From assembly GCA_964384365.1 (NCBI GenBank), contig CAYLKF010000002.1:98840-162839 (forward strand): a stretch of DNA of 64,000 bases, written 5' to 3'. This document shows, piece after piece, positions 12,686-60,487 of this stretch. Source of the DNA: an uncultured Pseudomonadota bacterium (GTDB lineage: Bacteria > UBA10199 > JADFYH01). The notes below the pieces were generated by a model. That model was not told the DNA's origin, searched no databases, and saw nothing but the letters and a program-made list of their open reading frames with translations. The translations under genes were made by a program, and so were the position numbers. The stretch's first letter is position 1, and every line of letters begins with the position of its first letter.

Positions 12686-12794
12686 GTCTTATCCAGAGTG
12701 GGTGAGGGAATGGCCCGATGACCCCACAGCAACCGCCTGTAAAGGAAGGTGCTAAATCCATCTCTTCGACGTTGAGTTGAAGGGGAAGATAAGG
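12686..12794 (+). promoter_or_regulatory. SAM-I (S-box) riboswitch aptamer
   Basis: cttatccAGAGtGGgtGAGGGAatGGCCCGATGAcCCCacaGCAACC...GGTGCTAAaTCC...gataag matches the conserved S-box core, with P1 closing pair cttatc/gataag. Confidence 0.75.
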
Positions 12795-12798
12795 AGAA

Positions 12799-12984: not shown

Positions 12985-14217
12985 ATGACACTGGTTAAAG
13001 GTTTAAAATGTCGGGAATGTGGCCACGGTTATCCAGTCACTCCTACCCATGTGTGTGAGTTTTGCTTTGGTCCGCTTGAAGTCGATTATAATTACGATGA
13101 AATCAAGAATGCTATTTCTCGGGAGAAAATTCTCTCTCGCCCCAAAACCATGTGGCGTTATAAAGAACTGCTTCCCATTGATCAAGAGCCGACGGTAGGC
13201 CGCTTAGCGGGCTTTACTCCTTTAGTGAAGGCCGATCGCTTGGCCAAGGCTTTGGGGGTGCAAGAACTTTATATTAAAAACGATGCGGTCTGTTACCCCA
13301 CCCTTTCTTTTAAAGATCGGGTGGTTTCAGTCGCACTTTCGAAAGCGAAGGAGTTCGGTTTTAAGGTAGTGGCTTGCGCCTCTACAGGTAATCTTGCAAA
13401 TTCTGTGGCGGCCAATGCAGCCAGTGCGGGCTTAGAAAGCTATGTATTTATTCCCCATGATTTAGAAGCGGGTAAGGTTTTAGGAACTCTCGTGTTTGGC
13501 TCCCACGTGGTGGGTATTCGGGGTACTTACGATGAAGTGAATCGCCTCTGCAGTGAAATTGCCGCCAAATATAAATGGGCGTTTGTGAATATTAACGTTC
13601 GACCTTTCTATGCCGAAGGTTCGAAGAGCTTATTTTTTGAAGTGATTGAGCAATTGGGTTGGAAAGTGCCCAAACATGTGGTGGTGCCGATGGCGAGTGG
13701 TTCTTTGCTTACGAAGGTGCACAAAGCCATTAAAGAATTTCAAAAAGTAGGTTTGATTGACTCCAGCGAGTGTAAAATCTATGGTGCCCAGGCTACCGGT
13801 TGCTCGCCCATTGCAACGGCTTTAAAAAGTGGATGGGATTTGTTTAAACCGGTTCGCCCGAATACAATCGCGAAATCTTTAGCGATCGGAAATCCGGCTG
13901 ATGGGTTTTATGCCATGCTCTCGATGAAAGAGACTGGCGGCTGGAGCGAAGATGTGTCGGATGATGAAATAGTTGACGCCATTAAACTTTTAGCTTCGAC
14001 TGAAGGGATCTTTACCGAAACCGCGGGTGGAGTCACTTTAGGGGTGACTAAAAAATTGATTGAACAAGGGAAAATCCCTAAAAATGAGTCTATCGTGATT
14101 TGCATTACCGGTAACGGACTTAAAACCCAAGAAGCGATTGCCGATAAAGTGGGTAAGACGACGATCATTAATGCCAAGCTTGCAGATTTCGATGCGGTTG
14201 TAGAAACGATGAAATAG
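12985..14217 (+). CDS. Threonine-synthase-family PLP enzyme with N-terminal zinc ribbon; candidate homocysteine-forming MetM-like enzyme
   Basis: N-terminal CxxC..CxxC ribbon (CRECGH...CEFC), fold-type II PLP lysine motif SFKDR, 410 aa. Sits behind a SAM riboswitch next to sulfur-carrier genes, so probably not a housekeeping thrC. Confidence 0.75.
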   Translation: MTLVKGLKCRECGHGYPVTPTHVCEFCFGPLEVDYNYDEIKNAISREKILSRPKTMWRYKELLPIDQEPTVGRLAGFTPLVKADRLAKALGVQELYIKNDAVCYPTLSFKDRVVSVALSKAKEFGFKVVACASTGNLANSVAANAASAGLESYVFIPHDLEAGKVLGTLVFGSHVVGIRGTYDEVNRLCSEIAAKYKWAFVNINVRPFYAEGSKSLFFEVIEQLGWKVPKHVVVPMASGSLLTKVHKAIKEFQKVGLIDSSECKIYGAQATGCSPIATALKSGWDLFKPVRPNTIAKSLAIGNPADGFYAMLSMKETGGWSEDVSDDEIVDAIKLLASTEGIFTETAGGVTLGVTKKLIEQGKIPKNESIVICITGNGLKTQEAIADKVGKTTIINAKLADFDAVVETMK

Positions 14218-31790: not shown

Positions 31791-33050
31791 ATGTCAAAAG
31801 AACTTTATGAACTCGGGGAAATTCCCCCTTTAGGAGAAGTTCCTAAAAAGATGCACGCGCAAGTGATTCGCCCTTCGCGTTTCGGTGAACCTAAAACTGC
31901 TTTTCAAGCAGAAGTAATCGATGTGCCTGAAATTGGCGATGACGAAGTTTTGGTTTACGTGATGGCTGCCGGAATCAACTACAATAACGTTTGGGCTGCT
32001 TTAGGAATCCCGGTGAATGTGATTGGAGCCCGAAATAAAGCCGGCGAAAAAGAAGAATTTCACATTGGTGGCTCCGATGCGAGTGGTGTGATTTATAAAA
32101 TCGGAAAAAATGTAAAAAATGTGAAAGTGGGCGATGAGGTGGTCATCCACTGTGGAATGTGGGATATTCATGATCCTGCGATTAAGAATGGCACCGATCC
32201 CATGTATCTTCCTTCTTACCGAATTTGGGGTTACGAAAGTAACTGGGGAAGTTTTGCCCAGTTTACCAAAGTTCAGGCCCACCAATGCGTACCCAAACCT
32301 AAGCATTTAAGTTGGGAAGAATCCGCTGCATATATGTTGGTGGCGGCCACGGCTTATCGCATGCTCACACGTTGGAGAGAGCACGAAGTGCGCAAAGATG
32401 ATGTGGTGCTTGTTTGGGGAGGCGCCGGTGGTTTGGGTTCGATGGCCATTCAAATCTGTAAAGCCTTTGGTGCAAAAGCGATCGCGGTGGTTTCAGGCGA
32501 AGATAAAGTGGAATATTGCAAAAAATTAGGCGCGGTCGGTTGCATTGATCGCCGAAAATTCAACCATTGGGGAATGCTCCCGCACTGGAAAGATAACGAA
32601 AAGTATAATGCTTGGTTAAAAGGCGCCCGCGATTTTGGGAAAGCGATTTGGGATGTTTTGGGTGAGAAGAAAAGTCCTCGCATTGTTTTCGAACATCCCG
32701 GTGAAGATACCGTTCCAACCTCGATCTTTGTTTGCGATACCGGCGGTATGGTGGTGATTTGTGCAGGAACCACGGGCTATAATGCTACCGTGGACTTGCG
32801 CTATCTCTGGATGCGTCAAAAACGTTTACAAGGTTCTCATTTTGCCAACGATGATCAAGCTATTGGCGTGAATAATCTCGTTCTCGAAGGAAAGATTGAT
32901 CCTTGCCTTTCTCGGGTATGGGAATTTAAAGAAACGGGCGATGCCCATCAACTTATGCGCGAAAATAAACATCCGCACGGAAATATGTCGATCTTGGTGA
33001 ATGCCAAGAAAAAAGGCCTGAAAAACCTCGAAGAATCAAGGAAGGCTTAA
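31791..33050 (+). CDS. ccr: Crotonyl-CoA carboxylase/reductase family enoyl-CoA reductase
   Basis: 419 aa; N-terminus [28 protein letters not shown] and MDR-superfamily GGAGGLG NADPH motif typical of Ccr. Confidence 0.8.
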
Positions 33051-44226: not shown

Positions 44227-44925
44227 ATGGATGCTGGAAAAAGTAAAATTCTAATTGCTGAAGACGAAGAGAGCATTCGAAAAGGTTTGGTCGATGTTTT
44301 TGTTTATCATGGCTATCAAGTGAATGCCGTAGAAACGGGGTCTGCGGCATTAAAAGAAGCTCTTACCGGAACGTATCATTTGATTATTTTAGATGTGATG
44401 TTGCCCGAATTAGATGGCTTTAAAATTTGCGATGCCATTCGAAAAAAAGATCGTGCGCAACCCATTATTCTTCTCACTGCAAAAGGCGATGAAGAAGATA
44501 TTATTCAGGGTTTAAAATTAGGTGCCGATGATTATGTAACCAAGCCTTTTTCAATTCGAGAGCTTTTAGCCCGATGTGAGAGTGTTTTGCGGCGAAGCCC
44601 AAAGCTTCAAGTAGCCAAGCAAAAGATTGAATGGGGGAAATTTGTGATCGATCCACTCAATCTGATTTTTGAAGGGCCCCAGGGAAATATCGAGCTTACG
44701 CGTCGGGAGGTTGATTTGCTCCGTTATCTTATTCAAAATTCTGAACGGCCGGTTTCGCGGCAGGAATTATTAAAAGAAGTTTGGGGTTACCAAAATCCAC
44801 AGATGGATACCCGCACGGTCGATATTCACATGACGAAGCTGCGACGAAAAATTGAAGAAGATGCGGAAAATCCAAAAATGATTCTGACGATTCGAGGAGA
44901 AGGCTACAAAATCGTTTCGTTTTGA
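44227..44925 (+). CDS. OmpR-family two-component response regulator
   Basis: Receiver domain (ILIAEDEE...LDVMLPELDGF...TAKGDEED) and winged-helix output domain. Confidence 0.85.
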   Translation: MDAGKSKILIAEDEESIRKGLVDVFVYHGYQVNAVETGSAALKEALTGTYHLIILDVMLPELDGFKICDAIRKKDRAQPIILLTAKGDEEDIIQGLKLGADDYVTKPFSIRELLARCESVLRRSPKLQVAKQKIEWGKFVIDPLNLIFEGPQGNIELTRREVDLLRYLIQNSERPVSRQELLKEVWGYQNPQMDTRTVDIHMTKLRRKIEEDAENPKMILTIRGEGYKIVSF

Positions 44926-46913
44926 TTTTTATGACAAAACTTCGCCTTCAATTTTTAGCTTTCTTTATCTTGCTCCAATTAGGGGTGATTTTTCTTTTGG
45001 GGAATTCTTATCGGCAGATGAGAATTGAAGAAAAAAGTTTGTGGGAAGGCGAAAGCGCCAAAGTTTATAATCAAATGCAGGCGCAGATTAGTGATTTTCT
45101 AAATTTAGAAGATGCACGTTCTTTTAAAGATTACCGTTTTTCCCAATCAAAAGAAGGAGAGGCTTTTACCACACGCTCTCCGCTCTCGGAGATTTCTCCC
45201 GTGGGTTTGCCCAAAGGGTGGCTAGGATATTTTCAAGTTGAGCCCGATGGAGGTTTTTCGACTCCCTATCTTCCTCCCGAAAATCCGAAATCTTTAAGTG
45301 ATTATTCCGAGCGTTTTCGCAAGCAAACAGAATTAGAGAAAAGTACCCTTCGTTTTCGAAAAGAGATGCAAGGTGCTTTGGCCGAGCGCGTGTCTCCAAA
45401 AGATGTTTCTATTCCCCACTTAAAGCCGCCCCCTGCGCCCGCCAAAGTTTTTGATGCAAAAGAAAAGGCTAAATCGGCACCGAATGTTTATCCAAACCCC
45501 ATTGCCGAAAAAAAGCAGGAAGCTAAATCGGGAGAAATGGAAAGCCCAAAAATGGCAGCTCCTGCGGCCGATTATTCTTCTCAGCTCGGCCGACGAGAAG
45601 AAACGGTGCAAGAAGGTTCTATACAAAATTTCCGACAAACTCAGTCTTCTGCTTCTTCTGCAGCGGGCCCCACCCTTAAGAAATCAAGAGCTGCTCCTCT
45701 CAAAGAATCTTCGCAGAGGCCGATAGAGCCGGTGCCCGCAGGCGCTCCAAAACCCTCTTCTTTCGCTCAAAGCTCTGAGCTCAATAAAACCACTTCGATT
45801 GTTTGGCTCGATCCTTTTCAGGCAAAAGTCTCGGGGCAGTTTTTGATTTTTTTTAGACGAGTTTCGGTTGATCAAAAAATGTATTTGCAGGGCTTTGTTT
45901 TAGAGACTCAGAAATTTTTTGAAGCCCTGATGCAGAATAGTTTTGAAAATTCGGAGTTGCCAAAATTTTCTTGGGTGCGTTGGGTCTGGGAAGACGAATT
46001 GATTGCGCAATATGGGCAAGTTCAGTCGGCTTCCAATAAACAAAATACCTTGTTTTGGCGCTGGATGGCCTATCCTTTAAATTCGATTCGTTGGAAAGTA
46101 GTGGGGGAGGCTTGGCCGCAAGTCTCAACGCGTTTGTATTTAAATATTCTCTCTGCCGGGCTCTTCTTATTTTCAACTCTTGGCTTGTTTTGGATTTACC
46201 GTTCGTCGGCTGCTCAGATTCGGCTCTCTCAAAAGCGCCAAGATTTTGTGGCAGCGGTGAGCCATGAATTGAAAACACCACTCACCTCCATCCGTATGTA
46301 TAGCGAAATGCTCGAAGATGATTGGGTAAAAGATGAAGCGAAGAAAAAAGAATATTATCAAAACATTCATCAAGAAAGTGAGCGCTTATCACGCTTGATT
46401 GAAAATGTTTTGCAAATGGCAAGGCTCGAAAAACAAAACCACCCCGTTCATCTCATTAAACAAAACCCAGAAGCTGATTTAAAACATTGGGCTCTACAAT
46501 TTGAGACTCTCGCCCAAAAAGAAGGTTTTGAATTTGTTTTGAAACTTCCGGATTCTCTTCCTTCTATTGAATATGATCCGGATGCCCTGAAAGAAATTTT
46601 TCTAATCTTCATGGAGAATAGTATTAAATTTTCTAAAAATGCTTCGAAGAAATTATTAGAATTGATTGTGAAGGTAGATGGATCTTTTCTGAATTTTGTG
46701 TGGAGAGATTATGGCCCTGGAGTGCCCGAGGCTGAACTCCGAAAGATTTTCGAGAAGTTTTATCGAATTGAAAATGAGCTTACCCGCAAAACCAAAGGGA
46801 CTGGTATTGGGCTAGCCATTGCAAAAATGACGATGGAGTCTATGAGGGCAAGCATTGAGGCAAAAAACCGAGAAGAGGGGTTAGATATTCTCTTAAAATT
46901 TCCTATTTCTTAA
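44922..46913 (+). CDS. Sensor histidine kinase with large low-complexity extracytoplasmic region
   Basis: Two TM segments; H-box AAVSHELKTPLTSI; HATPase N/G boxes (FMENSIKFS, GTGIGLAIAK). 4-nt overlap with the regulator. Confidence 0.85.
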   Translation: MIFMTKLRLQFLAFFILLQLGVIFLLGNSYRQMRIEEKSLWEGESAKVYNQMQAQISDFLNLEDARSFKDYRFSQSKEGEAFTTRSPLSEISPVGLPKGWLGYFQVEPDGGFSTPYLPPENPKSLSDYSERFRKQTELEKSTLRFRKEMQGALAERVSPKDVSIPHLKPPPAPAKVFDAKEKAKSAPNVYPNPIAEKKQEAKSGEMESPKMAAPAADYSSQLGRREETVQEGSIQNFRQTQSSASSAAGPTLKKSRAAPLKESSQRPIEPVPAGAPKPSSFAQSSELNKTTSIVWLDPFQAKVSGQFLIFFRRVSVDQKMYLQGFVLETQKFFEALMQNSFENSELPKFSWVRWVWEDELIAQYGQVQSASNKQNTLFWRWMAYPLNSIRWKVVGEAWPQVSTRLYLNILSAGLFLFSTLGLFWIYRSSAAQIRLSQKRQDFVAAVSHELKTPLTSIRMYSEMLEDDWVKDEAKKKEYYQNIHQESERLSRLIENVLQMARLEKQNHPVHLIKQNPEADLKHWALQFETLAQKEGFEFVLKLPDSLPSIEYDPDALKEIFLIFMENSIKFSKNASKKLLELIVKVDGSFLNFVWRDYGPGVPEAELRKIFEKFYRIENELTRKTKGTGIGLAIAKMTMESMRASIEAKNREEGLDILLKFPIS

Positions 46914-46918
46914 GAGCC

Positions 46919-47632
46919 TTATCTTCTGCGGCCAAAAAGACGCAATAAACTTAAAAACAGATTAATGAAATCAAGATAAAGCGTTAACGCGCCGCTAATC
47001 GCTTCTTTTTGATTTTCATCGGTTCCTTCATTTCCAATAATATTCATCTGCTTGATTTTTTGGGTATCGTAGGCCGTTAACCCTGCAAAAACAATCACTC
47101 CTACAATCGCATAGACTTTGCTGCTTGTCTCGGTCCACAAGCTCGAAAAGAAAAGGCTTAAAAGTCCAAAGCCTACCAAACCAAAAAGTCCCATGGTGCA
47201 AAAAGTACCGATGGGCCCTAAATCTTTTTTGGTAAAATATCCGATGGCTCCTAAGCCCGCAAAAGAGAAAGCGGTGAGTAAGAAAATAGAGGCGATACTA
47301 TCCTGAGTAAAAATAAGAAAAATGATAGAAAAAGTTACTCCATTGAGCGCGGAGTAAGTCATAAATAAGGCCAAGGCAGTGAGTGAATTAATTTTCGGGA
47401 GAAGAAACGAGAAAGCCAAGACCATTCCAAATTCGGCGAAGAGTAATCCGTAAAACAGAACCTTATTTTGAACAATTTTTACAGCTAAGTCTTGGTTATT
47501 TCCGATGAAATAGCTGATCAGCGCCGTGAGGAGAATCCCCAGCGTCATCCAAGAATACACCTTCGACATAAATCGTGCATTTTCTTCGGCGATGGCCTGA
47601 GTGGAAAGATTTTGTGGAAAAGAAGTGTGCAT
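46919..47632 (-). CDS. Bax-inhibitor-1/YccA-family membrane protein
   Basis: Seven-TM 237-aa protein with N-terminal FMSKVYSWMTLGILLTALISYF, typical of the BI-1/YccA family. Confidence 0.75.
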   Translation of the reverse strand: MHTSFPQNLSTQAIAEENARFMSKVYSWMTLGILLTALISYFIGNNQDLAVKIVQNKVLFYGLLFAEFGMVLAFSFLLPKINSLTALALFMTYSALNGVTFSIIFLIFTQDSIASIFLLTAFSFAGLGAIGYFTKKDLGPIGTFCTMGLFGLVGFGLLSLFFSSLWTETSSKVYAIVGVIVFAGLTAYDTQKIKQMNIIGNEGTDENQKEAISGALTLYLDFINLFLSLLRLFGRRR

Positions 47633-47652
47633 TTGGATCTCCTATAGCGTTT

Positions 47653-47727
47653 CAACTTTTAATGAGTACGAATGTGCTCATTAAAAGTTAGAAATACTTA
47701 CCGCATAAAGAGCGGCCCCTCTTTATG
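47653..47727. promoter_or_regulatory. Two palindromes in the divergent promoter region upstream of the Pls-like gene
   Basis: aacttttaatgagtac-gaat-gtgctcattaaaagtt (16-nt arms) and cataaagag-cggccc-ctctttatg. Confidence 0.4.
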
Positions 47728-47891
47728 GGGTGGTTTGTGAATGTAAAGTTGTCCTAATTGGAAGTTAATAAACCATAAAAGATAAAAAATCTTAGAACCC
47801 ATAGTACACCAAAGAAGTTTCAGAGATAAAGGTTGTTTTTGGGGAAATACTTGAAACGAGTCTAAAATCTAGTGTAATCCCCGTTTCGTCC

Positions 47892-50800
47892 TTGAGGACA
47901 CCTTGTGAATTTGTGAATATTGGAATTCCAAAAACTGAAAAGCGGTTGAGTTGGGTGCTGGGAGATTCTCGGCCCGATTTGTTGCGAGAAGAAACCCTTG
48001 CCCAAATCTTCCGAGAGACAGCCCAGGCTTATCCTGCCAAGACCGCCCTTTTTTTTCAGGAGAAATCTTTAACTTATGAAGAGCTCGATCGTTGGAGCGA
48101 TACGGTTGCGTTGGAGCTTGCGAGGCGAGGGGTTGGTCGGGGTGCGACAGTAGGGGTGTGGTGGCCTCGGAGCTTAGAGCTCCACGTGGCGATTTTGGGA
48201 ATCGTCAAGTCAGGAGCGGCTTATGTGCCTCTTGATCGTGAAATGCCCGCTGACCGCGTTTTGACCGTGCTGGCCGAAGTGGGGGCCGCCGCATGTTTTA
48301 GCGATGAAATTCTAGAGAGTGTTTGCCCGGTTTTGAAAGTGCCTGAGCCGTCTCCTCAAATTACGAAAGCAGAGCTTCCTGTAGGACCTTCTCCAGAAGA
48401 TTGGGCTTATGTCCTTTATACGTCGGGGAGTACGGGCAAGCCCAAAGGGATTCCCATTACTCAACGGCAAATTTGTCATCTCGTTCGTTCCGAACAAAGT
48501 ATTTTAAATATTCAAAACCAAGATAAGGTTTACCAGGGTTTTTCGGTTTCTTTCGATATGTGGTGCGAAGAAACCTGGATCAGTTTTTTGGTGGGAGCTA
48601 CACTTTGGGTGGCCGATTCAACCACAGCCAAATCGCTAGATGAGCTGGGCGAAATTCTCCGTAAAAATCAGATTACCGTGCTTCATGCGGTTCCAAGTTT
48701 ATTGGCGATCATTGACGATCAAATTCCTTCGATTCGTTTAGTCAATGCGGGAGGGGAGGCCTGCACTCCACAGGTTTTGGCAAAATGGGCCAAATCGTCG
48801 CGTCAATTTTTTAATACATATGGCCCCACCGAAACAACAGTTACGGCGACTCTTGCGCCCTTGAAAAGGGGAGATGAAATTACCATCGGCAAACCCTTGC
48901 CCAATTATGGTTTGGCCGTGGTGGACGAACAACTGAATCTTCTTCCTTGTGGAGAGCGCGGAGAATTAGTCATTTCGGGCCCAGGAGTGGGGGGGGGCTA
49001 TATCAACAGGCCCGAGCTTACTCGAAATTGTTTTCTCCCAAAACCGGAGGCGCTTCATTTACTTCCTGGAAATAAAATTTATCGAACCGGCGATGCAGCT
49101 TTCATCAATGAACAAGGCGATATTTTTGTGCAGGGGCGCTTTGATGATCAGATTAAGCTTCGTGGCTATCGAATTGAACTCGGTGAGATAGAAGTCTGTT
49201 TAAATCAACTCCCTTTTGTTTCAAGTGCAGCGGTCGCCGTAAAAAAAGATAAAGAATCGACCGATCATTTGGTGGCCTATCTTGTTTTGGAAACGGGAAA
49301 AACTTTTGATGAAATTCAGGCCCGTCATCTACTTGCCGAGCATTTGCCGGTTTATATGATTCCCAATTTGTTTGTGACGCTGAGCAAGATGCCTTATTTG
49401 CCCAGCGGAAAAATCGATCGTAAATCGCTTCCGGCTCCCGAAGTGCTTAATCAAGCCCAAGAGAAGACGAAAAATTTTGAGGCGAATGCTTCTGTTCAAG
49501 AACGGGTGCTGTGGGTTTTAAATCAAATGTTTCCAAATCGGCCTATAGAGTTAGAAGAAGATTTTTTCGATGATTTAGGCGGACACTCCCTTTTGGCGGC
49601 CGAATTTGTTTCTCGGCTTCGTGAGGCGAAACTGAATTATGCTTCGATTAAAGATGTTTATCTCCACCGCCCTCTGTCGAATCTTTTGAAAGAATGGGAG
49701 ACGAAAAAAACAGATTCTAAAATCTCAGGTGCCGCTTACCAGAAAATTTCGAATGGGCGTTATCTTTTTTGCAGCATCGCTCAAACTTTTGCCTTGCTTT
49801 TTGTTTATGGGCTCTTCGCTTTTCAAATTTTCTTACCTTATGTTTCTTATTATTATGTTTTGCAAGATACTTCGAGTCATGTGTGGGGCATTGTTGCTGC
49901 ACTTTGCTCTTTTTGCTTGGTCCCTCCGATTTTTATTACCATTACCATTCTAACAAAGTGGCTAGTAATTGGCCGAATTCGCCCTGGAGATTATCCGCTT
50001 TGGGGCTGGTATTATTTTCGCTGGTGGCTTTTCAAAGCCGTCCAAAAACTCACACCAGTTGAGTATATTAATGGAACGCCGATCTATCCCCTGTATTTGC
50101 GTTTGCTTGGAGTGAAGGTGGCATCCGATGCCCAATTAAGTGCGTTTATCATTGGCGCAGAAGATTTGGTTACCCTTGGAAAAGATGTGAGTATTAGCTC
50201 AGGAGTTGTTTTAAATAATGCGGTGGTTGAAGGCGGGCTTTTAAAACTGCGCTCCGTTCATCTTGCCGACCATGCCTATATTGGAACCAGTTCAGTGATT
50301 GGCGGAGACTGCAAAATTGAAGAATGGGGAGAGCTCAAAGATTTAAGTTTTTTGCGTCCGGGTACTCGGGTAAAAACTTGTGAAGTTTGGGGAGGAAGTC
50401 CGGCAGAACGGGAATGCACGAAAACGCTTGAAGAATTGCCTCAGCCTTTAGAAGTTTCTTTTCAAACACGTCTGAAATATAGCGCCATTTTTTTGCTTCT
50501 TCTTCTTTTGTTTCCTTTCAATGTTTTGCTTCCCCTTTTGCCGAGCATCATTATTTTGAATGAACTCGATACTGCAGCTCCCGATTATAATTTCAATTAT
50601 TTGGTGATTACGCCTCTCTTAGCAGCGAGCTACGTTTTGCTCTTTGCTTTGGAGGTGGTGATTTTTTCGCGGATCATTCTCAAAGACTTAAAACCAGGAA
50701 CCTATTCTCTCTATAGCAAGCTTTATATTCGTAAGTGGTTTGTAGATCAGTTAATCACTTTATCGCTCTATGTGCTGCATCCTGCCTACGCGACGGTCTA

Positions 50801-51878
50801 TGTTTCGAGCTTTTACCGAGCCCTGCGTGCGAAGATTGGAAAGCGCACCGAGATTTCAACGGCCAGTGAAGTGACTCATTGTCTTTTAGAGGTTGGAGAA
50901 GGAGCTTTTGTGGCCGATGCGGTTACTTTGGGTGAAGATGATGTGCGAGCTCAGCAATTTACCCTCAGCCAAACAACGATTGGAAGCAATAGCTTTGTAG
51001 GAAATAGTGCGCTGATTCCCCAAGGCTATCATTTACCCAGCGATATGTTGGTGGGAGTTTTATCGGTACCGCCCACGCCAGAGCAACTTCGCAACTCTTC
51101 GGCAAAAAATTGGTTTGGTTCTCCGGCGATTCCGCTTCCGAGGCGCCAGGAGAGCGGAAATTATCCGGCAAGTTTAACGACGCATCCTTCTCACAAAAGA
51201 AAAATTGTTCGTGGAGTGATTGAGTTTCTACGGCTTTTGGTTCCTTCAACGGTCTTGATGTGTTTGAGTGTGGTTTTTATTGCGTATGTGCATGATTTGG
51301 TTGTTGATGGGAGCTGGTTGGAATTATTTTTACAATTTCCTTTTTACTATATTGGTTTCGTGGGGCTTCCTTGTTTCTTGGTTGTGGTGCTTCTTAAATG
51401 GATTTTGATTGGAAAATATAAAGTGCTTCAAACCCCCATGTGGACTTCAAAAGTCTGGCGAACAGAAGCCATTACTGCCATCTACGAGGCGCTTTCGGTG
51501 CCTTTTCTCCTTGAATATTTAAAGGGGACCCTCTGGCTGCCTCTTGCCTTGCGTTTGCTGGGAGTTAAAGCTGGAAAACGGGTTTGGCTGAATACGACGG
51601 ATATCACCGAATTTGATTTGGTAAGTATTGGAGACGATGCGGCTCTCAATGAAGATAGTGGCCCCCAAACTCATTTGTTTGAAGATCGTGTGATGAAAAT
51701 AGGATCGGTGGATATTGGTGAAAGAGCTAGTGTCGGGGCTCGAACTGTGGTTTTATACGAGAGTAAAGTGGGCAACGAAACGGTTTTGGAGCCTTTGTCT
51801 TTGGTGATGAAGGGTGAAAATCTTCCTTCACAGTCTCGTTGGGGCGGAAGCCCCGTAAGGCCCGTTTCAGCTTCTTAG
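47892..51878 (+). CDS. Single-module NRPS-like homopoly(amino acid) synthetase with epsilon-poly-L-lysine-synthetase (Pls)-type architecture: A domain, T domain, then three tandem soluble repeats each flanked by TM pairs
   Basis: A-domain cores LKSGAAYVPLD, LYTSGSTGKPKG, NTYGPTETT, YRTGD, GRFDDQIKLRGYRIELGEIE, PSGKIDRK. PCP core FFDDLGGHSLLA. The C-terminal half shows a triplicated unit (KWLVIGRIRPGDYPLWGWYYFRWW, KDLKPGTYSLYSKLYIRKWF, KWILIGKYKVLQTPMWTSKVWRTE, each followed by a hexapeptide-like beta-helix segment) separated by pairs of TM helices. No C or TE domain. TTG start. Confidence 0.8.
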   Translation: MRTPCEFVNIGIPKTEKRLSWVLGDSRPDLLREETLAQIFRETAQAYPAKTALFFQEKSLTYEELDRWSDTVALELARRGVGRGATVGVWWPRSLELHVAILGIVKSGAAYVPLDREMPADRVLTVLAEVGAAACFSDEILESVCPVLKVPEPSPQITKAELPVGPSPEDWAYVLYTSGSTGKPKGIPITQRQICHLVRSEQSILNIQNQDKVYQGFSVSFDMWCEETWISFLVGATLWVADSTTAKSLDELGEILRKNQITVLHAVPSLLAIIDDQIPSIRLVNAGGEACTPQVLAKWAKSSRQFFNTYGPTETTVTATLAPLKRGDEITIGKPLPNYGLAVVDEQLNLLPCGERGELVISGPGVGGGYINRPELTRNCFLPKPEALHLLPGNKIYRTGDAAFINEQGDIFVQGRFDDQIKLRGYRIELGEIEVCLNQLPFVSSAAVAVKKDKESTDHLVAYLVLETGKTFDEIQARHLLAEHLPVYMIPNLFVTLSKMPYLPSGKIDRKSLPAPEVLNQAQEKTKNFEANASVQERVLWVLNQMFPNRPIELEEDFFDDLGGHSLLAAEFVSRLREAKLNYASIKDVYLHRPLSNLLKEWETKKTDSKISGAAYQKISNGRYLFCSIAQTFALLFVYGLFAFQIFLPYVSYYYVLQDTSSHVWGIVAALCSFCLVPPIFITITILTKWLVIGRIRPGDYPLWGWYYFRWWLFKAVQKLTPVEYINGTPIYPLYLRLLGVKVASDAQLSAFIIGAEDLVTLGKDVSISSGVVLNNAVVEGGLLKLRSVHLADHAYIGTSSVIGGDCKIEEWGELKDLSFLRPGTRVKTCEVWGGSPAERECTKTLEELPQPLEVSFQTRLKYSAIFLLLLLLFPFNVLLPLLPSIIILNELDTAAPDYNFNYLVITPLLAASYVLLFALEVVIFSRIILKDLKPGTYSLYSKLYIRKWFVDQLITLSLYVLHPAYATVYVSSFYRALRAKIGKRTEISTASEVTHCLLEVGEGAFVADAVTLGEDDVRAQQFTLSQTTIGSNSFVGNSALIPQGYHLPSDMLVGVLSVPPTPEQLRNSSAKNWFGSPAIPLPRRQESGNYPASLTTHPSHKRKIVRGVIEFLRLLVPSTVLMCLSVVFIAYVHDLVVDGSWLELFLQFPFYYIGFVGLPCFLVVVLLKWILIGKYKVLQTPMWTSKVWRTEAITAIYEALSVPFLLEYLKGTLWLPLALRLLGVKAGKRVWLNTTDITEFDLVSIGDDAALNEDSGPQTHLFEDRVMKIGSVDIGERASVGARTVVLYESKVGNETVLEPLSLVMKGENLPSQSRWGGSPVRPVSAS

Positions 51879-51886
51879 GAGGGATC

Positions 51887-52588
51887 ATGCCAGAAATTTC
51901 TTACCGAAAAGGGGCGATTCAGCCTCTCGTTTGTTATCGTTTAGCGTGGCAATTCATTAAAGATGACTATTGGACTTTTTTGCTTATTGCTCTGGTGGGC
52001 CTAGTCTTAGGGAGTTTGGCGCCTTTAGGTATTTTGATGGGGCCCATGATGTGCGGGATCTATCTTTGTTTGTTCGGAAAACTCAATCAAGAAAAAATTA
52101 CTTTTGATAAGCTCTTAAAAGGCTTTGATTTCTTTTTGCCGAGCTTTATCGCAACGCTGATTCAAATGATTCCGGTTATTATTCTCATTGTCCCGATGAA
52201 TTTTTATTTCATCTTCGTGATGATGCAAGACATTCAAATGCTTCAACAAAATTCCGACCCGGCCTTTGCTCAAGCTTGGCTCGTTAGTTTTTTCCTGAAG
52301 ATGATTCCTGGAGTAGGAATTATGATGCTTCTGATGTTAATCGCGACAGCCCTTTTCATGTTTAGTTATCCTTTGATCGTCGATAAAAAACTCTCGGCTT
52401 GGGAAGCCATTCAAACCAGCGCCCGATCTGCCTTAGCGAATTTAGGGGGAGTTTTGGGTTTGGTGTTTTTAAATATGTTTTTGGGAGTGATTGGTGTTTG
52501 TTGCTGTTATGTAGGTGCAATCTTTATTCTTCCGATTACCCTGGCCGCTAATTTTATGGCTTATCGCCAAGTTTTTGGAGAAATCTAA
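51887..52588 (+). CDS. Polytopic membrane protein translationally coupled to the Pls-like gene
   Basis: ATG 8 nt after the pls stop, behind GGAGGG; about 6 TM helices. The longer upstream ORF start at 51839 overlaps pls and is less likely. Confidence 0.5.
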   Translation: MPEISYRKGAIQPLVCYRLAWQFIKDDYWTFLLIALVGLVLGSLAPLGILMGPMMCGIYLCLFGKLNQEKITFDKLLKGFDFFLPSFIATLIQMIPVIILIVPMNFYFIFVMMQDIQMLQQNSDPAFAQAWLVSFFLKMIPGVGIMMLLMLIATALFMFSYPLIVDKKLSAWEAIQTSARSALANLGGVLGLVFLNMFLGVIGVCCCYVGAIFILPITLAANFMAYRQVFGEI

Positions 52589-52630
52589 TTTTTTCTTCGC
52601 TGCACTAACCCAGATAAACTGGATAAGAGA

Positions 52631-54700
52631 CTAATGGCTCCGCACCTTTGAGAGATGCACCATCGGAAAAGGTTCCATCGGAATTTGAATCTCTAAATTA
52701 TCTCCTCTACAAGTATAGTGAAGTTGGGCTGGATGGGTTGATGGCGGAGTTGGAAGATTTGTACTTCGAGTTCTTCCCGCAATAGAGATGGTAGCCTGAC
52801 CACTTGAGTTTACTGCAAAATTCCAAATATTTAAGGTGGAACCACCCGCTGCATAATTTCCCTGTGCATTCATTTGCATGTTGATGTTCATGATCATATT
52901 CATTCCTCGATCCATGGGCGTATTTGTGCCCACGCTATAATCGAGTGTGCCATTTGCGATTCCATTCCGTTTCATGCAGAGATCCGCGTTGATCGAAAAA
53001 TTCGTGATTTGAGTTCGTTGAGTCGCCTGATGCCCTGAGAAGAGGGCTTGCAAAGCACTCCGATCACTTGCAGGGTCGATATGCCATCGGCCAATCAGAC
53101 AGTTGTCGCGAGAGCTTGCATCGACCCCTGCCGGAGCGCTTTCAGTACCCCCTCCTGCGTTTTCTGCTCTTACATCCACCGTCAGTTGATATTCTGTATG
53201 TCCGGATCGGGTATTCGTCAGCAATACTTTATAGGTTGAGGATTCGGAATCTCCGTCACAAGAAAAATTACCGATTGTTTCGGGTAAATTTCCCCAGGTG
53301 GTTTCACCTTCTTTTTCTGCACTATATTTCCCAGGATTTTCGTCGCGAGTCTGAATGTGAAATTGTTTGTTATCAGGATCAAAAACCATTTTTTTGCGGG
53401 TGATCACGAAAGGTTGGGAGCTGTAGCGATAAGTGTGAGTATCGGTTACTCGATCCACATCCGAAAAAGTTGGATTGAGAGGGCGATTTCCCCCGCCGGT
53501 ATCGTGAATTTGATTATCTAAATAATGCTCTCCAAAACGGTGAAAGAGATCATTCATGTTGGAATAAGCCGAGAGCGCGGCTTCTTGCTCGTCGAAAGAT
53601 CCGCTCGTAGGGAGTGAAGCAAACAAGCTTAAGACACCCGCATTTCCTGTTTCGTTGGCGAGATATTGGAGAAAAACATTCGCCTCATAGCTCATGCGAT
53701 GAATGGGCGTTGTGGGAGATTCAGAATCAAAATCGCTGTTGTAGTAATCTTCTTCATTGGTAGAAGGATAAACCACGTTGCTGAAATATTCTGCACCGCC
53801 TTCGGCCCACCATTCGGTGGCAGCCACTGAAGGACCCCGGTTTTGCATCATATAATTATCATCTTCGACACAATGAAAAACTTCGTGGGCAAGAATTTGT
53901 TTGAAGACCGCCGGATTTTCGATGAAACTTTGGATTCCCGCATACCACACCTGAACCCGACAGACCTCTTCTCCTAAAACATTGGCGTTTACGGCACTGG
54001 CGTCTGCACCGAGAGCCGCAGGGTTTGACATGGGAATCACTAAAACATAGGTTTTGCGAGTTCGAAGCCCCAAGCCTCTGTAAGTGCGTAGAGAATCGCT
54101 GACTGCCTCGCTCACGGCAGAACGAAAATTGTCTTCTGCATTCACAAGGGTGTGGATGAGGAGTTTGTTTTCAAAACCTTGAGAGGGAATATTGTATTCC
54201 AGATAGCAATCCGAATCGATGCAACGTCGTTCTTGTGCAGATGCAGGGGGAACTAAGATATTTTGGAGAGAAAGAGAAGGAGGTGTTGATGAATTCGCAG
54301 AGCTCGATTTTTTTAAAATTTTATTCAAATCTGGAAATACTTTATCGATCAAGCGTTGGATTTCTTTTTTGGCTGCTTCATCGTCACCATACTGAAGGTA
54401 GTGTTGGGCACGACGCTGAAGAGGGGTAAGCTCTCGGGCCCTGATTTTTTTGATGCCATAAACTTGTTCTGGAGTTTTTTCTCCGGCAAAAATTTTCAGG
54501 TTTTCGATAATGAGAGTTTTTTCGTCCCAGGTTCCGGATAATTCCTTTTCTCGATAGAGATTATAAAGAACAGGAATCGTTGTGTCTGGGCCGGTGATTT
54601 TTTTAGAATTTGTTTTATAGAGAAATAAAAGTGCTGCACCAAATCCGAGGAGAATGATAAAAAGCCCCACGAGAGCAAAAAGAATTTTATTGGATTTCAT
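52631..54700 (-). CDS. Membrane-anchored putative zinc metalloprotease (HExxH)
   Basis: N-terminal TM anchor ILFALVGLFIILLGFGAALLFLY; HEVFH motif with downstream Glu (WWAEGGAEYF); 689 aa; convergent with the pls operon. Confidence 0.55.
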   Translation of the reverse strand: MKSNKILFALVGLFIILLGFGAALLFLYKTNSKKITGPDTTIPVLYNLYREKELSGTWDEKTLIIENLKIFAGEKTPEQVYGIKKIRARELTPLQRRAQHYLQYGDDEAAKKEIQRLIDKVFPDLNKILKKSSSANSSTPPSLSLQNILVPPASAQERRCIDSDCYLEYNIPSQGFENKLLIHTLVNAEDNFRSAVSEAVSDSLRTYRGLGLRTRKTYVLVIPMSNPAALGADASAVNANVLGEEVCRVQVWYAGIQSFIENPAVFKQILAHEVFHCVEDDNYMMQNRGPSVAATEWWAEGGAEYFSNVVYPSTNEEDYYNSDFDSESPTTPIHRMSYEANVFLQYLANETGNAGVLSLFASLPTSGSFDEQEAALSAYSNMNDLFHRFGEHYLDNQIHDTGGGNRPLNPTFSDVDRVTDTHTYRYSSQPFVITRKKMVFDPDNKQFHIQTRDENPGKYSAEKEGETTWGNLPETIGNFSCDGDSESSTYKVLLTNTRSGHTEYQLTVDVRAENAGGGTESAPAGVDASSRDNCLIGRWHIDPASDRSALQALFSGHQATQRTQITNFSINADLCMKRNGIANGTLDYSVGTNTPMDRGMNMIMNINMQMNAQGNYAAGGSTLNIWNFAVNSSGQATISIAGRTRSTNLPTPPSTHPAQLHYTCRGDNLEIQIPMEPFPMVHLSKVRSH

Positions 54701-54812
54701 AAGGTCTTGAAATGGGCATAAGTTCGCTCAGAAAACAAGTTTTATGATGGGTTCGCTGAGCAACTTGAAATATCTTTGCAGGGTGTGAGAGGCTAAATAC
54801 ATTTCTATAATT

Positions 54813-55562
54813 TTGAAAAATTGGTTAGCGGTGAAAAAAACTCAGATCACATTTCAATTACAGGCACCTCATCTTTGGACCCTCGAAAGCTTGATGCAAA
54901 TCCAGGGCATCCCTTCTGTTTTTGTGCCTCCGTTACCTGCCTGGATTGAGCAAATGCCTATTCGGATGACCGTTGTTGAGCTTCCCGAGAAGAAATTGTT
55001 TTTACATTCTCCTGTTCCCCTCACGGAAGAGGTAAAACAAGAACTGGATTCTTTAGGAGAAGTTGCTTTTGTGGTGGCGCCGAGTCTACTTCATCATGTG
55101 AATGTTTTGTCTTATGCCCAAAATTATAAAAAAGCCTTATGTCTCATGCCTCAAAATTTAAAAAAGAAACGGCGAGATTTAGAGAGTTTTTCTTATTTAG
55201 AAGATCATCCACGCTTTGCTGCTCCTCATCTCGAGCAGATCTTGCTTGCCGGGCATCGTTCCGAAGAAACAGCTTTTTTTCATCCTTCAACTCGCACCCT
55301 CATTGTGGCGGATCTTTGCTATAACCCGGGGATGGAGCAGGGTTTCTTAGGAAGGACTTTTTTTAAAATAGTTGGTGCTTATGGCAAGCCGAGTTTACCT
55401 TTCTATCATCGCTTCGCGGTGAGCGATGCCAAAGCTCTAAAACAATCTTTAGAAAAAATTCTCAGTTGGGATTTTGACCGAATCATTCTCTCTCACGGAA
55501 CAATCATCCCCAATAATGGGAAAGAAATTTTTCAGAAAATATGGGCCTGGGCGTTGAAATAG
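54813..55562 (+). CDS. Conserved hypothetical protein
   Basis: 249-aa ORF, several His-rich positions (SLLHHVNV, LAGHRSEE, ILSHGT) suggesting a metal-dependent fold; not assigned. Confidence 0.45.
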   Translation: MKNWLAVKKTQITFQLQAPHLWTLESLMQIQGIPSVFVPPLPAWIEQMPIRMTVVELPEKKLFLHSPVPLTEEVKQELDSLGEVAFVVAPSLLHHVNVLSYAQNYKKALCLMPQNLKKKRRDLESFSYLEDHPRFAAPHLEQILLAGHRSEETAFFHPSTRTLIVADLCYNPGMEQGFLGRTFFKIVGAYGKPSLPFYHRFAVSDAKALKQSLEKILSWDFDRIILSHGTIIPNNGKEIFQKIWAWALK

Positions 55563-55564
55563 CC

Positions 55565-55984
55565 TTAACGGGTGCTGACGAGACGAATTTCAATATCTTG
55601 TTGGGGGGCGAGCACCGAAATAAATTCTTGTAGCTTAGAGAGGCTGGGCTCGGAGCGCCCTTGTTCGTATTGAGCGTAGGCATTTTTTGATTTTGTTTTG
55701 AGTTTTTTTGCCATTTCACTCAAGCTGATATTTTTCAGGGCTCGCTGGCGTTTTAGCATTAAAGACAGGAGAGAAATCGGATTGTTAGAGCTTAAGAAGA
55801 ATGTGTTTTTACTGTGTGGGATGATTTTAATTCTCAATCCTTTGTCATTTAAAAGGAGTTCGAGAGCATTCCCGAGCATGAAATAGGCTTCTTTCTTAGA
55901 TTTTGCTTGGGTGAGTAAGTCTAATACAGGGATTTCAATTAACCACCACTTTTTGTGTTTACGAATTTTGCCTTCCAAAATCAT
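55565..55984 (-). CDS. hicB: HicB-family antitoxin with C-terminal XRE-type HTH
   Basis: N-terminal HicB fold region (WWLIEIPVLDLLTQAKSKKEA); C-terminal HTH NISLSEMAKKLKTKSKNAYAQYEQGRSEPSLSKL; 4-nt overlap with hicA. Confidence 0.7.
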   Translation of the reverse strand: MILEGKIRKHKKWWLIEIPVLDLLTQAKSKKEAYFMLGNALELLLNDKGLRIKIIPHSKNTFFLSSNNPISLLSLMLKRQRALKNISLSEMAKKLKTKSKNAYAQYEQGRSEPSLSKLQEFISVLAPQQDIEIRLVSTR

Positions 55985-56199
55985 AAAATTCCCCTCGAGT
56001 GATATTTAGCTTTTTTCAGAATTTTTTTTGCCAAGAGCTCATTGATTTCTTTGTGCCTTGGAATGGGTTCTTCTAATTCTCCATTCGACCAAATTTCGTG
56101 TTTGGATCCCTGGCGAAGAAGATACCATCCTTTTGATTTTAATTTGTAGATAAGCTCTTTATACTTCATAAGTATACATAAATTAATGTACGATGTCAA
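55981..56199 (-). CDS. hicA: HicA-family mRNA interferase toxin
   Basis: KELIYKLKSKGWYLLRQGSKHEIW matches the HicA GW.L.RQ.GSH core. The true start is probably the internal Met (MKYKEL). Confidence 0.7.
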   Translation of the reverse strand: MTSYINLCILMKYKELIYKLKSKGWYLLRQGSKHEIWSNGELEEPIPRHKEINELLAKKILKKAKYHSRGIL

Positions 56200-56743: not shown

Positions 56744-58402
56744 CTACACCACAATCCGCTCGCGATACAGCCCAAAAACCTCACGCATCGTATCGCTAAT
56801 TTCTCCGAGAGTGGTGTAGCAACGAACCGCATTCAAAATATGCGGCATCAAATTTTCGTTTCCTTTGGCGGCTTGAGTGAGTCTTTCTCGCGCCGCTTTT
56901 ACAGCCCCGTTATCGCGTTTTTCACGAAGTTTTTTCAAGCGCTCGCACTGCTTAATTTCAATCGAGGGGTCGACCCGTAAAATATCTTTTACGGCTTCTT
57001 CCTTCTTTTGAAATTTATTCACGCCCACAATAATAATTTTTTCCTCTTCGATCGCTTTTTGATATTGATACGCCGCTTCTTGGATTTCGCGTTGTTGAAA
57101 GCCGGCTTCAATTCCTTTTACGGCGCCGCCCAGTTTATCGATTTTCTCAATGTATTCTAAGGCGCGTTTTTCGATTTCGTCCGTCAACGATTCCACCACG
57201 TAAGATCCGGCGAAAGGATCAATCGTATCGGTTACGCCCGTTTCATAAGCAATCAATTGTTGAGTGCGCAGCGCCAGGGTTGCCGAGGCTTCGGTGGGGA
57301 GGGCTAGGGCTTCGTCGCGTCCATTGGTGTGAAGACTTTGAGTTCCACCAAAAACCGCAGAAAGCGCCTGGAAAGCCACGCGAATTCCATTGTTATCGAT
57401 CTGCTGCGCGGTGAGTGTAGAGCCCCCGGTTTGGGTATGAAAACGAAGCATGCAGCTGCGATCGGTCGCGTTGAAGCGCTGCTTCATCAATTTTGCCCAA
57501 AGACGCCGAGCCGCGCGAAACTTTGCCACTTCTTCAAGAAAATTATTGTGCGAATTAAAAAAGAAAGAGAGGCGCGAGGCGAAGTCATCCACCTTCAAGC
57601 CTTTATCAACCGCGGCTTTCACGTAAGCCAAGCCATTTGCCAAAGTGAACGCAACTTCTTGCACGGCCGTCGATCCGGCTTCGCGAATATGATAGCCCGA
57701 GATTGAAATCGTATTCCATTTGGGAACAGAATCTTTGCAGAAGGCAAACATATCGGTAATGATTCGCATCGAGTGTTCGGGCGGGTAGATATAGGTACCC
57801 CGGGCGATGTATTCTTTGAGTAAATCGTTTTGAACGGTGCCCGAAATTTTATCGGCAGTGACGCCCTGTTTTTCGGCAACAGCCATGTAGAGAGCCAAAA
57901 GAATAGAAGCGGTGGAATTAATCGTCATCGAAGTCGAAACTTTATCGAGGGGGATTTGGTTAAACAAAATTTCCATATCTTCGAGCGAATCGATGGCAAC
58001 TCCGGCCTTTCCCACTTCGCCCTTTGAACGCGGCGAATCGGAATCGTAACCCATTTGAGTGGGCAGATCGAAAGCGACCGAAAGCCCTGTTCCACCATTT
58101 TCAATCAGATAGCGGTAACGTTTGTTCGATTCTTCAGCGGTCGCAAAACCGGCATACATGCGCATGGTCCAGTAGCGCCCACGATACATGGTGGGTTGAA
58201 CGCCGCGGGTGAAGGGAAATTGGCCGGGAAAATTCAGTTCTTCAAGATAGCTCGGATCAGGATTTTCAGGAAGATACAGTCTTTCAAGCTCGATTCCCGA
58301 AGAATTCGTAAACTGTTTTTTACTTTCCGGATCGCGTGCTAACGATTTTGCTAAAGTGGTTTCTTCCCATTTTTTGAAGGCTTCTTTGGTTTTGTCAGAC
58401 AT
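56744..58402 (-). CDS. B12-dependent acyl-CoA mutase large (catalytic) subunit without fused B12-binding domain (IcmA/McmA-like)
   Basis: [50 protein letters not shown] signature; 552 aa; no C-terminal DxHxxG domain. Confidence 0.8.
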
Positions 58403-59544: not shown

Positions 59545-59625
59545 AACCCCTCACCCTACCCCTGGTTCGACAGGCTCACCACGCCGTCTCCCCAGAGGGG
59601 AGAGGGTGAAGGGGAAAGGTATGTC
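59545..59625. repeat. Palindromic repeat element upstream of the Kir channel gene
   Basis: cccctcaccctacccc ... tctcccc-aga-ggggaga-gggtgaagggg; related to the cctcaccc/ccctctcc family. Confidence 0.55.
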
Positions 59626-60487
59626 TCAACGTTTACTCAATCCCGATGGCAGTTTTAATATTTACCATAAAAAGCGCCCCGGGCTTGTGTTTTCTGATTT
59701 ATATCATTTTCTTCTTTCTCTTTCGTGGCCCCGCCTCATTTTGGTTTTGGTGGGTGTTTTTTTGATTACCCATTTTTTCTTTGCTTCTCTGTATTATCTT
59801 TGTGGGCCTTCGAGCTTGCAAGGTTTGGGCGCAGAGCAGGGCCTAGGTTTTTATCTCGATTGTTTTTTCTTTAGTGTGCAAACCTTGGCCACCATTGGTT
59901 ATGGCCATATTGCCCCGCGCGGTTTTTGGCCCAATATACTGGTTACTTTCGAATCGTTTTTAGGGCTTTTTGGCCTCGCACTCATGACAGGGCTCCTCTT
60001 TGCCCGTTTTTCGAGGCCTAATTCGCGCGTGATTTTTAGCCGCGTGGCCTTAATGACCCATTATCAAAATCAACCCGCTTGGATGTTTCGAATTGCCAAC
60101 GAACGCATGAATCAAATCATCGAGGCAAAAGTTTCGGTGATTGTGGTGAAAGATGAAGCAGCCGAAGATGGAAAAGTTTTCCGCAAAGTCTATAATATGA
60201 AGCTCCTTCGGGAAACCACGCCCATTTTTGCATTGAGCTGGACGGTGGTGCATCCCATTACTCCCGATAGCCCCATTTACGGATTAAATGCAGAAGATTT
60301 CGAAAAAGGCAGCGCCGAGATTTTTGTTTCGGTTACCGGAATCGATGAAGTTTTTTCACAAACCATCCATGCGCGTTATTCTTATGCGGGCAGCGATATT
60401 CTGTGGAATAAACAATTTAAAGATGTGCTGATTCCTTCTGAGCGCGGCATTGAGGTGGATCTCGATCCGTTTCATGAGGTGGAGTAA
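59606..60487 (+). CDS. Prokaryotic inward-rectifier K+ channel (KirBac family)
   Basis: Selectivity filter TIGYGH, two-TM pore architecture (slide helix, M1, pore helix, M2) and cytoplasmic Ig-like C-terminal domain. Confidence 0.8.
   Translation: MKGKGMSQRLLNPDGSFNIYHKKRPGLVFSDLYHFLLSLSWPRLILVLVGVFLITHFFFASLYYLCGPSSLQGLGAEQGLGFYLDCFFFSVQTLATIGYGHIAPRGFWPNILVTFESFLGLFGLALMTGLLFARFSRPNSRVIFSRVALMTHYQNQPAWMFRIANERMNQIIEAKVSVIVVKDEAAEDGKVFRKVYNMKLLRETTPIFALSWTVVHPITPDSPIYGLNAEDFEKGSAEIFVSVTGIDEVFSQTIHARYSYAGSDILWNKQFKDVLIPSERGIEVDLDPFHEVE

Follow-up and report, generated by a model that had tools for sequence, protein, structure and literature searches.

Pls, the epsilon-poly-L-lysine synthetase of Streptomyces albulus (BAG68864; adenylation domain structure 7WEW), is the founding member of a family of single-module non-ribosomal peptide synthetases (NRPSs) that make cationic homopolymers; it works iteratively and needs no condensation or thioesterase domain. 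Another characterised member, PosA, the delta-poly-L-ornithine synthetase of Acinetobacter baumannii AB307-0294 (ATY43264; Patel and Gulick, 2023, PMC10522769), is a protein of 1332 amino acids (aa) in which an adenylation (A) domain and a carrier domain are followed by three repeats of two transmembrane (TM) helices and a beta-helix. According to a published survey, such synthetases are spread over many phyla of bacteria and are also found in fungi, archaea and some eukaryotes, and Asp at position 1 and Glu at position 3 of the ten-residue specificity code are conserved across all of them (PMC10522769). Here, we describe a synthetase of 1321 aa with the same layout as PosA, encoded in a stretch of 64,000 nucleotides (nt) from an uncultured Pseudomonadota bacterium (contig CAYLKF010000002.1, positions 98,840 to 162,839; hereafter, the window). 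We consider it probable that this protein belongs to the PosA subtype of the Pls/PosA family and builds a cationic homopolymer with ornithine as its monomer. It is an ordinary new, uncharacterised member of an already described, widespread family.

Overall architecture and family membership

The open reading frame (ORF) called mechanically on the forward strand (47892-51878) was translated without interruption into 1328 aa from a TTG codon, the length given in the preliminary description of this DNA. The frame was found as described, but a protein with 100% identity (P0001) that is already in public data is 1321 aa long and starts at GTG 47913; its numbering is used here, and the start codon is uncertain by a few codons. 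All three ORFs named in that description, for the synthetase, a membrane protein and an HExxH protein, were located in the window (Table 1).

The only domains that Pfam identified in the synthetase were AMP-binding (aa 40-370), AMP-binding_C, PP-binding and Hexapep. No Pfam match to a condensation or thioesterase domain was present at E <= 0.01, and the HHxxxDG and GxSxG motifs were also not found. The A1-A9 motifs were located in order by regular expression, and inspection of the translation itself showed the A10 motif (PSGKIDRK) and the carrier motif DFFDDLGGHSL. The protein contains a single A domain with ordered cores and, after it, a single carrier domain bearing the GGxS serine, which is the arrangement characteristic of the family. 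The NCBIfam model TIGR02353 ("Pls/PosA family non-ribosomal peptide synthetase") matched aa 630-1322 over profile positions 2-695 of 695 with 634.6 bits (cutoff 423.1; E = 2e-190), and TIGR01733 (amino-acid adenylation domain) matched with 372.7 bits (cutoff 317.4). Additionally, D215 and E219 were aligned with D235 and W239 of GrsA and with D217 and E221 of PosA, as is typical of Pls/PosA enzymes acting on diamino acids.

The synthetase gene is intact and a member of the Pls/PosA family, an assignment about which we have hardly any doubt. The preliminary description had proposed a Pls-type homopoly-amino-acid synthetase, and the TIGR02353 score, well over its cutoff, bore this out. Its proposal of a single A domain and a carrier, no condensation or thioesterase domain and a threefold C-terminal repeat agreed with Pfam, the motifs, hydropathy, blastp between the repeats and an AlphaFold2 (AF2) model. 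Pls shares both the architecture and TIGR02353. The alignment with PosA ran end to end (residues 15-1317) at 39.7% identity, which is an approximate value because the PosA sequence was taken from a machine-read Supplementary Table 3 with a few letters lost. Both proteins carried the motif GPQTHLFEDR(V/I)MK. In contrast to PosA, the present synthetase belongs to an uncultured bacterium (~43.5% GC), and its function is predicted from sequence.

Substrate-binding pocket

The specificity code was read from HMMER alignments to GrsA-PheA (1AMU; chain numbering equals classical positions 235 to 331) and to the PosA A domain (8G95). As the 158-aa pocket query stops short of position 10 (GrsA K517), this residue was assigned from the A10 motif SGKIDRK. 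The resulting code was DMEHNGTVTK (D215, M216, E219, H258, N278, G280, T302, V310, T311 and K500), which was identical to that of PosA (DMEHNGTVSK) at 9 of 10 positions, while the code of Pls is DAESIGTVVK. The only change replaced Ser313 of PosA, at code position 9, with Thr, so that the hydroxyl was kept, and the other key pocket residues of PosA were the same. The preliminary description had taken the acidic residue in FDMWCEE as a hint of a cationic monomer and left the alignment to GrsA-Phe to be done. As evident from the alignment, a Glu of this segment is located at GrsA position 239, and the hint can be sharpened to L-ornithine.

The best match among solved single-domain structures was the PosA A domain (8G95-8G98; 384 bits), compared with 283 bits for that of Pls. 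The 158-aa pocket segment was likewise much less similar to Pls (95 bits) than to PosA (191 bits), and code position 2 is Ala in Pls. The synthetase was thus nearer to PosA than to the lysine, diaminopropionate (DAP) or 2,4-diaminobutyrate (DAB) enzymes, where nearness was judged from A-domain and pocket scores for Pls and from codes only for the DAP and DAB enzymes. The pattern DME(H/S)NG(S/T)V(S/T)K was present in all 120 of the 120 nearest homologues.

In PosA, mutation of D217 or E221 abolished activity, T304 and S313 hydrogen-bond the delta-amine, and M218 sterically excludes lysine (PMC10522769). Among the predicted ornithine codes listed by Patel and Gulick in Supplementary Table 2 are DMEHNGSVTK (Pedobacter), DMEHNGSVSK (Chitinophaga vietnamensis, our locus L015) and DMENNGTVTK (a fungus), and codes with such S/T wobble were classed as ornithine-type by these authors by prediction only (PMC10522769). 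Because of the PosA-like code, the predicted ornithine codes of relatives and the end-to-end alignment with PosA, L-ornithine is the best prediction and the likely monomer, as judged from the pocket and the biochemistry of PosA.

The C-terminal membrane domain

The Kyte-Doolittle profile revealed six hydrophobic segments in three pairs (approximately aa 617-646/655-687, 854-883/894-926 and 1101-1133/1139-1172), and the six-helix topology rests on this scale together with the AF2 model. The pairs were interleaved with three homologous domains, as the preliminary description had expected. Comparison of the repeats by blastp gave E-values of 1.6e-16 (repeats 1 and 3), 1.6e-6 (repeats 1 and 2) and 1e-3 (repeats 2 and 3). 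A stretch rich in Lys, Trp and Tyr, which had been noticed previously in each repeat, was found after the second helix.

The AF2 model of the C-terminal 733 aa, built with 46 homologues, had a predicted local distance difference test (pLDDT) value of 85.7 and a predicted template modelling score (pTM) of 0.87. It consisted of three units, each with two long helices followed by a short-strand beta-helix, and this picture was the same as that of the published PosA model (PMC10522769). Each beta-helix matched hexapeptide acyltransferases and gamma-carbonic anhydrases in Foldseek with probability 1.0, and weak sequence matches agreed. The fold common to all three soluble repeats is that of hexapeptide acyltransferases such as maltose O-acetyltransferase (1OCX, 3HJJ) and serine acetyltransferase (6WYE), and in the PosA model the three repeats pack like the trimers of these enzymes. 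Although the folds are similar, there are clear differences: in the synthetase, three beta-helices are fused in one chain with six membrane helices, the identity is only 11-25%, and the acyl donor would be an aminoacyl-S-carrier domain instead of an acyl-CoA. No solved structure of the C-terminal domain was found in the PDB by sequence or fold, where only generic beta-helix proteins were matched, and no relevant report of an experimental full-length structure of Pls was found in the literature.

In repeat 3, the motif GPQTHLFEDRVMK was invariant in the 46 homologues and was also present in PosA, while repeats 1 and 2 differed at the equivalent positions. This pattern of conservation suggests that only one of the three pseudo-symmetric beta-helix sites may be catalytic, and the His of the motif (His1254) is a candidate catalytic base.

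Proposed mechanism

The domains, the family assignment, the threefold architecture in the membrane and the pocket resembling that of PosA are directly observed, and on this basis we propose the following reaction cycle. The A domain would activate L-ornithine with ATP; Asp215 would bind the alpha-amine and Glu219, Thr302 and Thr311 the delta-amine, while Met216 would limit the length of the side chain. The carrier domain would then receive ornithine as a thioester on its phosphopantetheine arm at Ser559. The C-terminal domain, predicted to be a one-chain pseudo-trimer of left-handed, acyltransferase-like beta-helix units on six membrane helices, would transfer the ornithyl group to the delta-amine of free ornithine or of the growing, untethered chain. 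Iteration would yield isopeptide-linked delta-poly-L-ornithine, which would leave the cell at the membrane. We infer the iterative mechanism, with its untethered acceptor, and export by analogy with the work on Pls and PosA; for Pls, these features were reportedly described by Yamanaka et al. (2008). The product is most likely short ornithine chains. A synthetic 12-mer of delta-poly-ornithine was mildly antifungal (PMC10522769).

Relatives and distribution

A search of 5.8 billion proteins returned at least 8000 matches at E <= 1e-20, for many of which NCBI already uses the name "Pls/PosA family non-ribosomal peptide synthetase", and the top 120 were at least 60% identical. Among the GTDB species representatives there were 403 relatives, none of them more than 64% identical, and the best 80 of the 403 were almost all from Chitinophaga, Mucilaginibacter, Pedobacter and other Bacteroidota. 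When the C-terminal domain was used in an exhaustive HMMER search, 603 clusters at 50% identity (E <= 1e-30) were obtained, and the window synthetase shared one cluster with the Chitinophaga, Pedobacter and Mucilaginibacter relatives. The genes from these three genera (for example, C. vietnamensis WP_201747873.1, at L015), together with MBF0491472.1 from a metagenome-assembled genome labelled Deltaproteobacteria bacterium, encode proteins of 59-69% identity over their full length. These uncharacterised synthetases belong to the same code family as the window protein, but their loci have different neighbours, and none contained a DUF975-like or an HExxH protein. Chitinophaga and Pedobacter homologues (60-64% identity) have already been listed as predicted ornithine polymerases (PMC10522769).

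In the preliminary description, the low-GC, Gram-negative-like context was said to make the locus unusual. This view did not hold: a Gram-negative, moderate-GC setting is not unusual because the family is widespread in Proteobacteria and Bacteroidota and PosA itself was characterised from A. baumannii in 2023 (PMC10522769).

Genes adjacent to the synthetase

The stop codon of the synthetase (TAG, 51876-51878) is followed by GAGGGATC and then by the ATG of the membrane protein gene at 51887, leaving a gap of 8 nt, and a GGAGGG Shine-Dalgarno sequence overlaps the stop codon. An overlapping ORF of 249 aa starting at TTG was rejected as an artefact of mechanical ORF calling; the true start is ATG 51887, which gives 233 aa. 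The preliminary description had named a translationally coupled protein with six TM helices; the tight linkage was confirmed, and four hydrophobic blocks of 37-46 residues were found, leaving six as a tentative helix count. The protein had weak similarity to DUF975, GPDPase_memb and BPSS1780. Its gene is probably co-transcribed with that of the synthetase, and its functional role is putative. In this respect the locus differs from posA, which is described as a single-gene unit (PMC10522769).

Among the loci compared, this membrane protein gene followed the synthetase only in L002 and L003, whose synthetases were 88% and 83% identical to that of the window. This gives no independent support because these loci are syntenic over the whole 16 kb. 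None of the 80 Bacteroidota loci had the gene, nor did it follow the synthetases of 69% and 68% identity. The membrane protein family has more than 1000 members, of which many named ones are from Acidobacteria, and three homologues (44-51% identity) were located in purine-catabolism or polyamine gene contexts with no synthetase nearby. These sequence comparisons restrict the pairing with the synthetase to a narrow clade. Within this small group of uncultured bacteria, the DUF975-like protein could be a dedicated exporter, immunity or chain-length factor of a two-gene operon.

One hydrophobic anchor at the N-terminus and the motif HEVFH (residues 272-276) were found in the HExxH protein. In its family (L087-L091 among others), the pattern AHExFHC...WWxEGxAEYFSNVVYPxxNxE was invariant, and several conserved cysteines and C-terminal beta-sandwich domains were present; this is an HExxH+E, gluzincin-like signature by sequence. 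It is a very small orphan family, with only 9 homologues among the 5.8 billion proteins. The AF2 model was of moderate quality (pLDDT 71) and resembled M1 aminopeptidase catalytic domains and ColG-type beta-sandwiches only weakly and in part. The family profile had no match in PDB sequences, and the window protein had no Pfam family. Six of the 9 family members, not including the window protein, touched Pfam DUF6055 weakly. The gene is located in a strain-variable island (52583-54863), in place of which L002 and L003 have two small unrelated genes. A toxin-antitoxin-like pair on the reverse strand (55565-56169; an HTH_3 protein of 139 aa and a 62-aa HicA-toxin gene) was also absent from L002 and L003; this pair and the HExxH gene define the stretch as a strain-variable region.

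The neighbours of these synthetases varied with lineage: a peptidase in Streptomyces and Corynebacterium, a GNAT acetyltransferase in Chitinophaga, a phosphopantetheinyl transferase in Sphingobacteriaceae, the DUF975-like protein here and none in Acinetobacter. In particular, a GNAT gene (172 aa) was present 10 nt downstream on the same strand at 25 of 78 Bacteroidota loci (L007, 9931-10449, and 24 other Chitinophaga-type loci), and it could encode an enzyme that modifies a polyamine-like product or protects the producer from it. A divergent gene for an Sfp-type phosphopantetheinyl transferase was located upstream at 19 of the 78 loci (L029, 5194-5757, and 18 other Pedobacter/Mucilaginibacter-type loci). 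These synthetases have no universal partner gene, and because the accessory genes differ by lineage, adjacency alone should not be read as a degradation or immunity module.

Regulatory genes were observed upstream of some synthetases. At L004/L005 (4771-7989), which carries a 69%-identical homologue, 12 nt separate the synthetase from the end of a stand-alone response regulator of 135 aa, upstream of which lies a hybrid PAS histidine kinase. In the window (44227-46913) and in L002 and L003, an OmpR-type regulator and a kinase were found 1-3.5 kb upstream. These synthetases may be under two-component control, although the tblastn matches to the kinase and regulator of the window at other loci were only 24-36% identical, which is expected for unrelated two-component proteins.

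Alternative explanations

Several points weigh against the assignment of the synthetase as a delta-poly-L-ornithine polymerase. PosA, the characterised comparison, is only ~40% identical; the change from Ser to Thr at code position 9 falls where an Ala mutant of PosA had a 183-fold loss; and Stachelhaus codes are degenerate for cationic substrates (PMC10522769). As to the length and role of the product, PosA made only 7- to 12-mers in vitro, and its knockout phenotype was weak (PMC10522769). No phosphopantetheinyl transferase or ornithine-supply gene was found in the neighbourhood, and a promoter and terminator scan of 46800-55700, in which sites were not above shuffled sequence (8 versus 12.4 promoters; 14 versus 11.3 terminators), was uninformative as to expression of the synthetase. 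An enzyme of the same class could use another cationic monomer (L-lysine, DAB, or modified or D-ornithine), so that the product would not be delta-poly-L-ornithine. The Thr at position 9 would fit this idea, as would the side activity of PosA with D-ornithine, lysine and DAB and the unexpected specificity shifts that pocket changes cause in a Bdellovibrionales homologue. However, the Met at position 2, the Glu at position 3 and the hydroxyls at positions 7 and 9 are retained, position 2 is Ala in lysine enzymes and Phe in DAP and DAB enzymes, and the alternation of Ser and Thr at positions 7 and 9 is common in the clade and classed as ornithine-type by the authors of the PosA study; we regard a different monomer as unlikely, though it keeps a sizeable share of the doubt. 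The protein might also not be a polymerase in vivo and might use its beta-helix domain for a single ornithyl transfer from the carrier to a lipid, polysaccharide or peptidoglycan acceptor. The hexapeptide acyltransferase fold is indeed present in every C-terminal repeat, and the oligomers of PosA are short and its knockout mild, but the synthetase aligns end to end with an enzyme that polymerises ornithine in vitro without any other acceptor, and all characterised members of the family in the list of Patel and Gulick produce homopolymers. A single-transfer role is very improbable.

Beyond the synthetase itself, the preliminary description suggested that the HExxH protein degrades the polymer, as Pld does. 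On this suggestion, the synthetase, the membrane protein (exporter or immunity) and the HExxH protease (polymer-degrading and self-protecting) would form a cassette like pls and pldII in Streptomyces. The three genes are physically adjacent; the short gap and the ribosome-binding site over the stop codon tie the membrane protein gene to the synthetase, a position kept in L002 and L003; and the HExxH protein is membrane-anchored with a gluzincin-like domain that would face outwards. In S. albulus, however, pls and pldII lie on one strand and are translationally coupled (PMC9223678, PMC8117764), and PldII is described as aminopeptidase-like with two Zn ions (PMC9223678). The HExxH gene is on the opposite strand, convergent, with another gene between it and the synthetase, and neither a same-strand, coupled downstream peptidase nor the co-occurrence of peptidase and synthetase in related genomes was found. 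The HExxH gene was absent from L002-L086, among them L002, L003 and 80 further synthetase loci, and the three neighbourhoods read for its homologues (41%, 28% and 27% identity) had no synthetase within 8 kb. The membrane protein homologues likewise lie in unrelated contexts, posA stands alone, and the accessory genes of Chitinophaga, Pedobacter and Mucilaginibacter are of other kinds. A three-gene cassette is improbable; on present evidence the HExxH protein is not part of the synthetase system, and the analogy with Pld rests on adjacency in one genome. We also hold it to be rather unlikely that the locus has a more novel role, in which the Thr/Thr pocket variant shifts specificity to a monomer new to this polymer class or the synthetase and the DUF975-like protein form a two-gene operon.

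Other features of the window

The coordinates of the synthetase and of the adjacent genes are listed in Table 1. The region from 44 to 60 kb contained ordinary chromosomal genes at ~43.5% GC without a compositional break. Genes of the same ordinary kind, free of markers specific to a lineage, fill the rest of the window. The Rfam search of the window gave a S-adenosylmethionine (SAM) riboswitch only (RF00162, 84 bits; 12686-12795, forward strand), ~190 nt upstream of a threonine-synthase-like ORF (12985-14217, forward strand). A gene for a KirBac-like inward-rectifier potassium channel (59606-60487, forward strand; IRK, Ion_trans_2 and IRK_C) was conserved in L002 and L003. Also present were genes for a crotonyl-CoA carboxylase/reductase and for two proteins of the methylmalonyl-CoA-mutase type (27053-29008, 31791-33050 and 56744-58402), which suggests ethylmalonyl-CoA-type metabolism in the source organism.

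Table 1. Features of the synthetase locus in window coordinates.
Feature	Coordinates	Strand	Basis
Pls/PosA-family single-module NRPS, 1321 aa	47913..51878	+	Public-data identity, TIGR02353, TIGR01733, PosA alignment
Adenylation domain (Acore + Asub)	48009..49457	+	Pfam, HMMER alignments to 1AMU/8G95/7WEW, core motifs
Carrier (thiolation) domain, phosphopantetheine-bearing Ser559 in DFFDDLGGHSL	49533..49730	+	Pfam PP-binding, motif position
C-terminal polymerisation domain, three times (two TM helices + left-handed beta-helix)	49740..51875	+	TIGR02353, hydropathy, repeat homology, AF2, Foldseek
Hydrophobic pairs of the synthetase	49761-49850/49875-49973, 50472-50561/50592-50690, 51213-51311/51327-51428	+	Hydropathy
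Invariant motif GPQTHLFEDRVMK, repeat 3	51660-51698	+	Invariant columns
Polytopic membrane protein, 233 aa, DUF975/GPDPase_memb/BPSS1780-like	51887..52588	+	Weak family matches
Membrane-anchored HExxH (gluzincin-like) protein, 689 aa	52631..54700	-	HEVFH motif; convergent with the synthetase

Implications

No long-standing question is made testable by this locus in particular. If the DUF975-like protein did serve the synthetase in a two-gene operon, a large family of unknown function would gain its first role. The locus represents one further predicted producer of delta-poly-ornithine, in an uncultured lineage outside the actinomycetes. Although its value is modest, it lends support to the view, already published, that the synthesis of cationic homopolymers is widespread.

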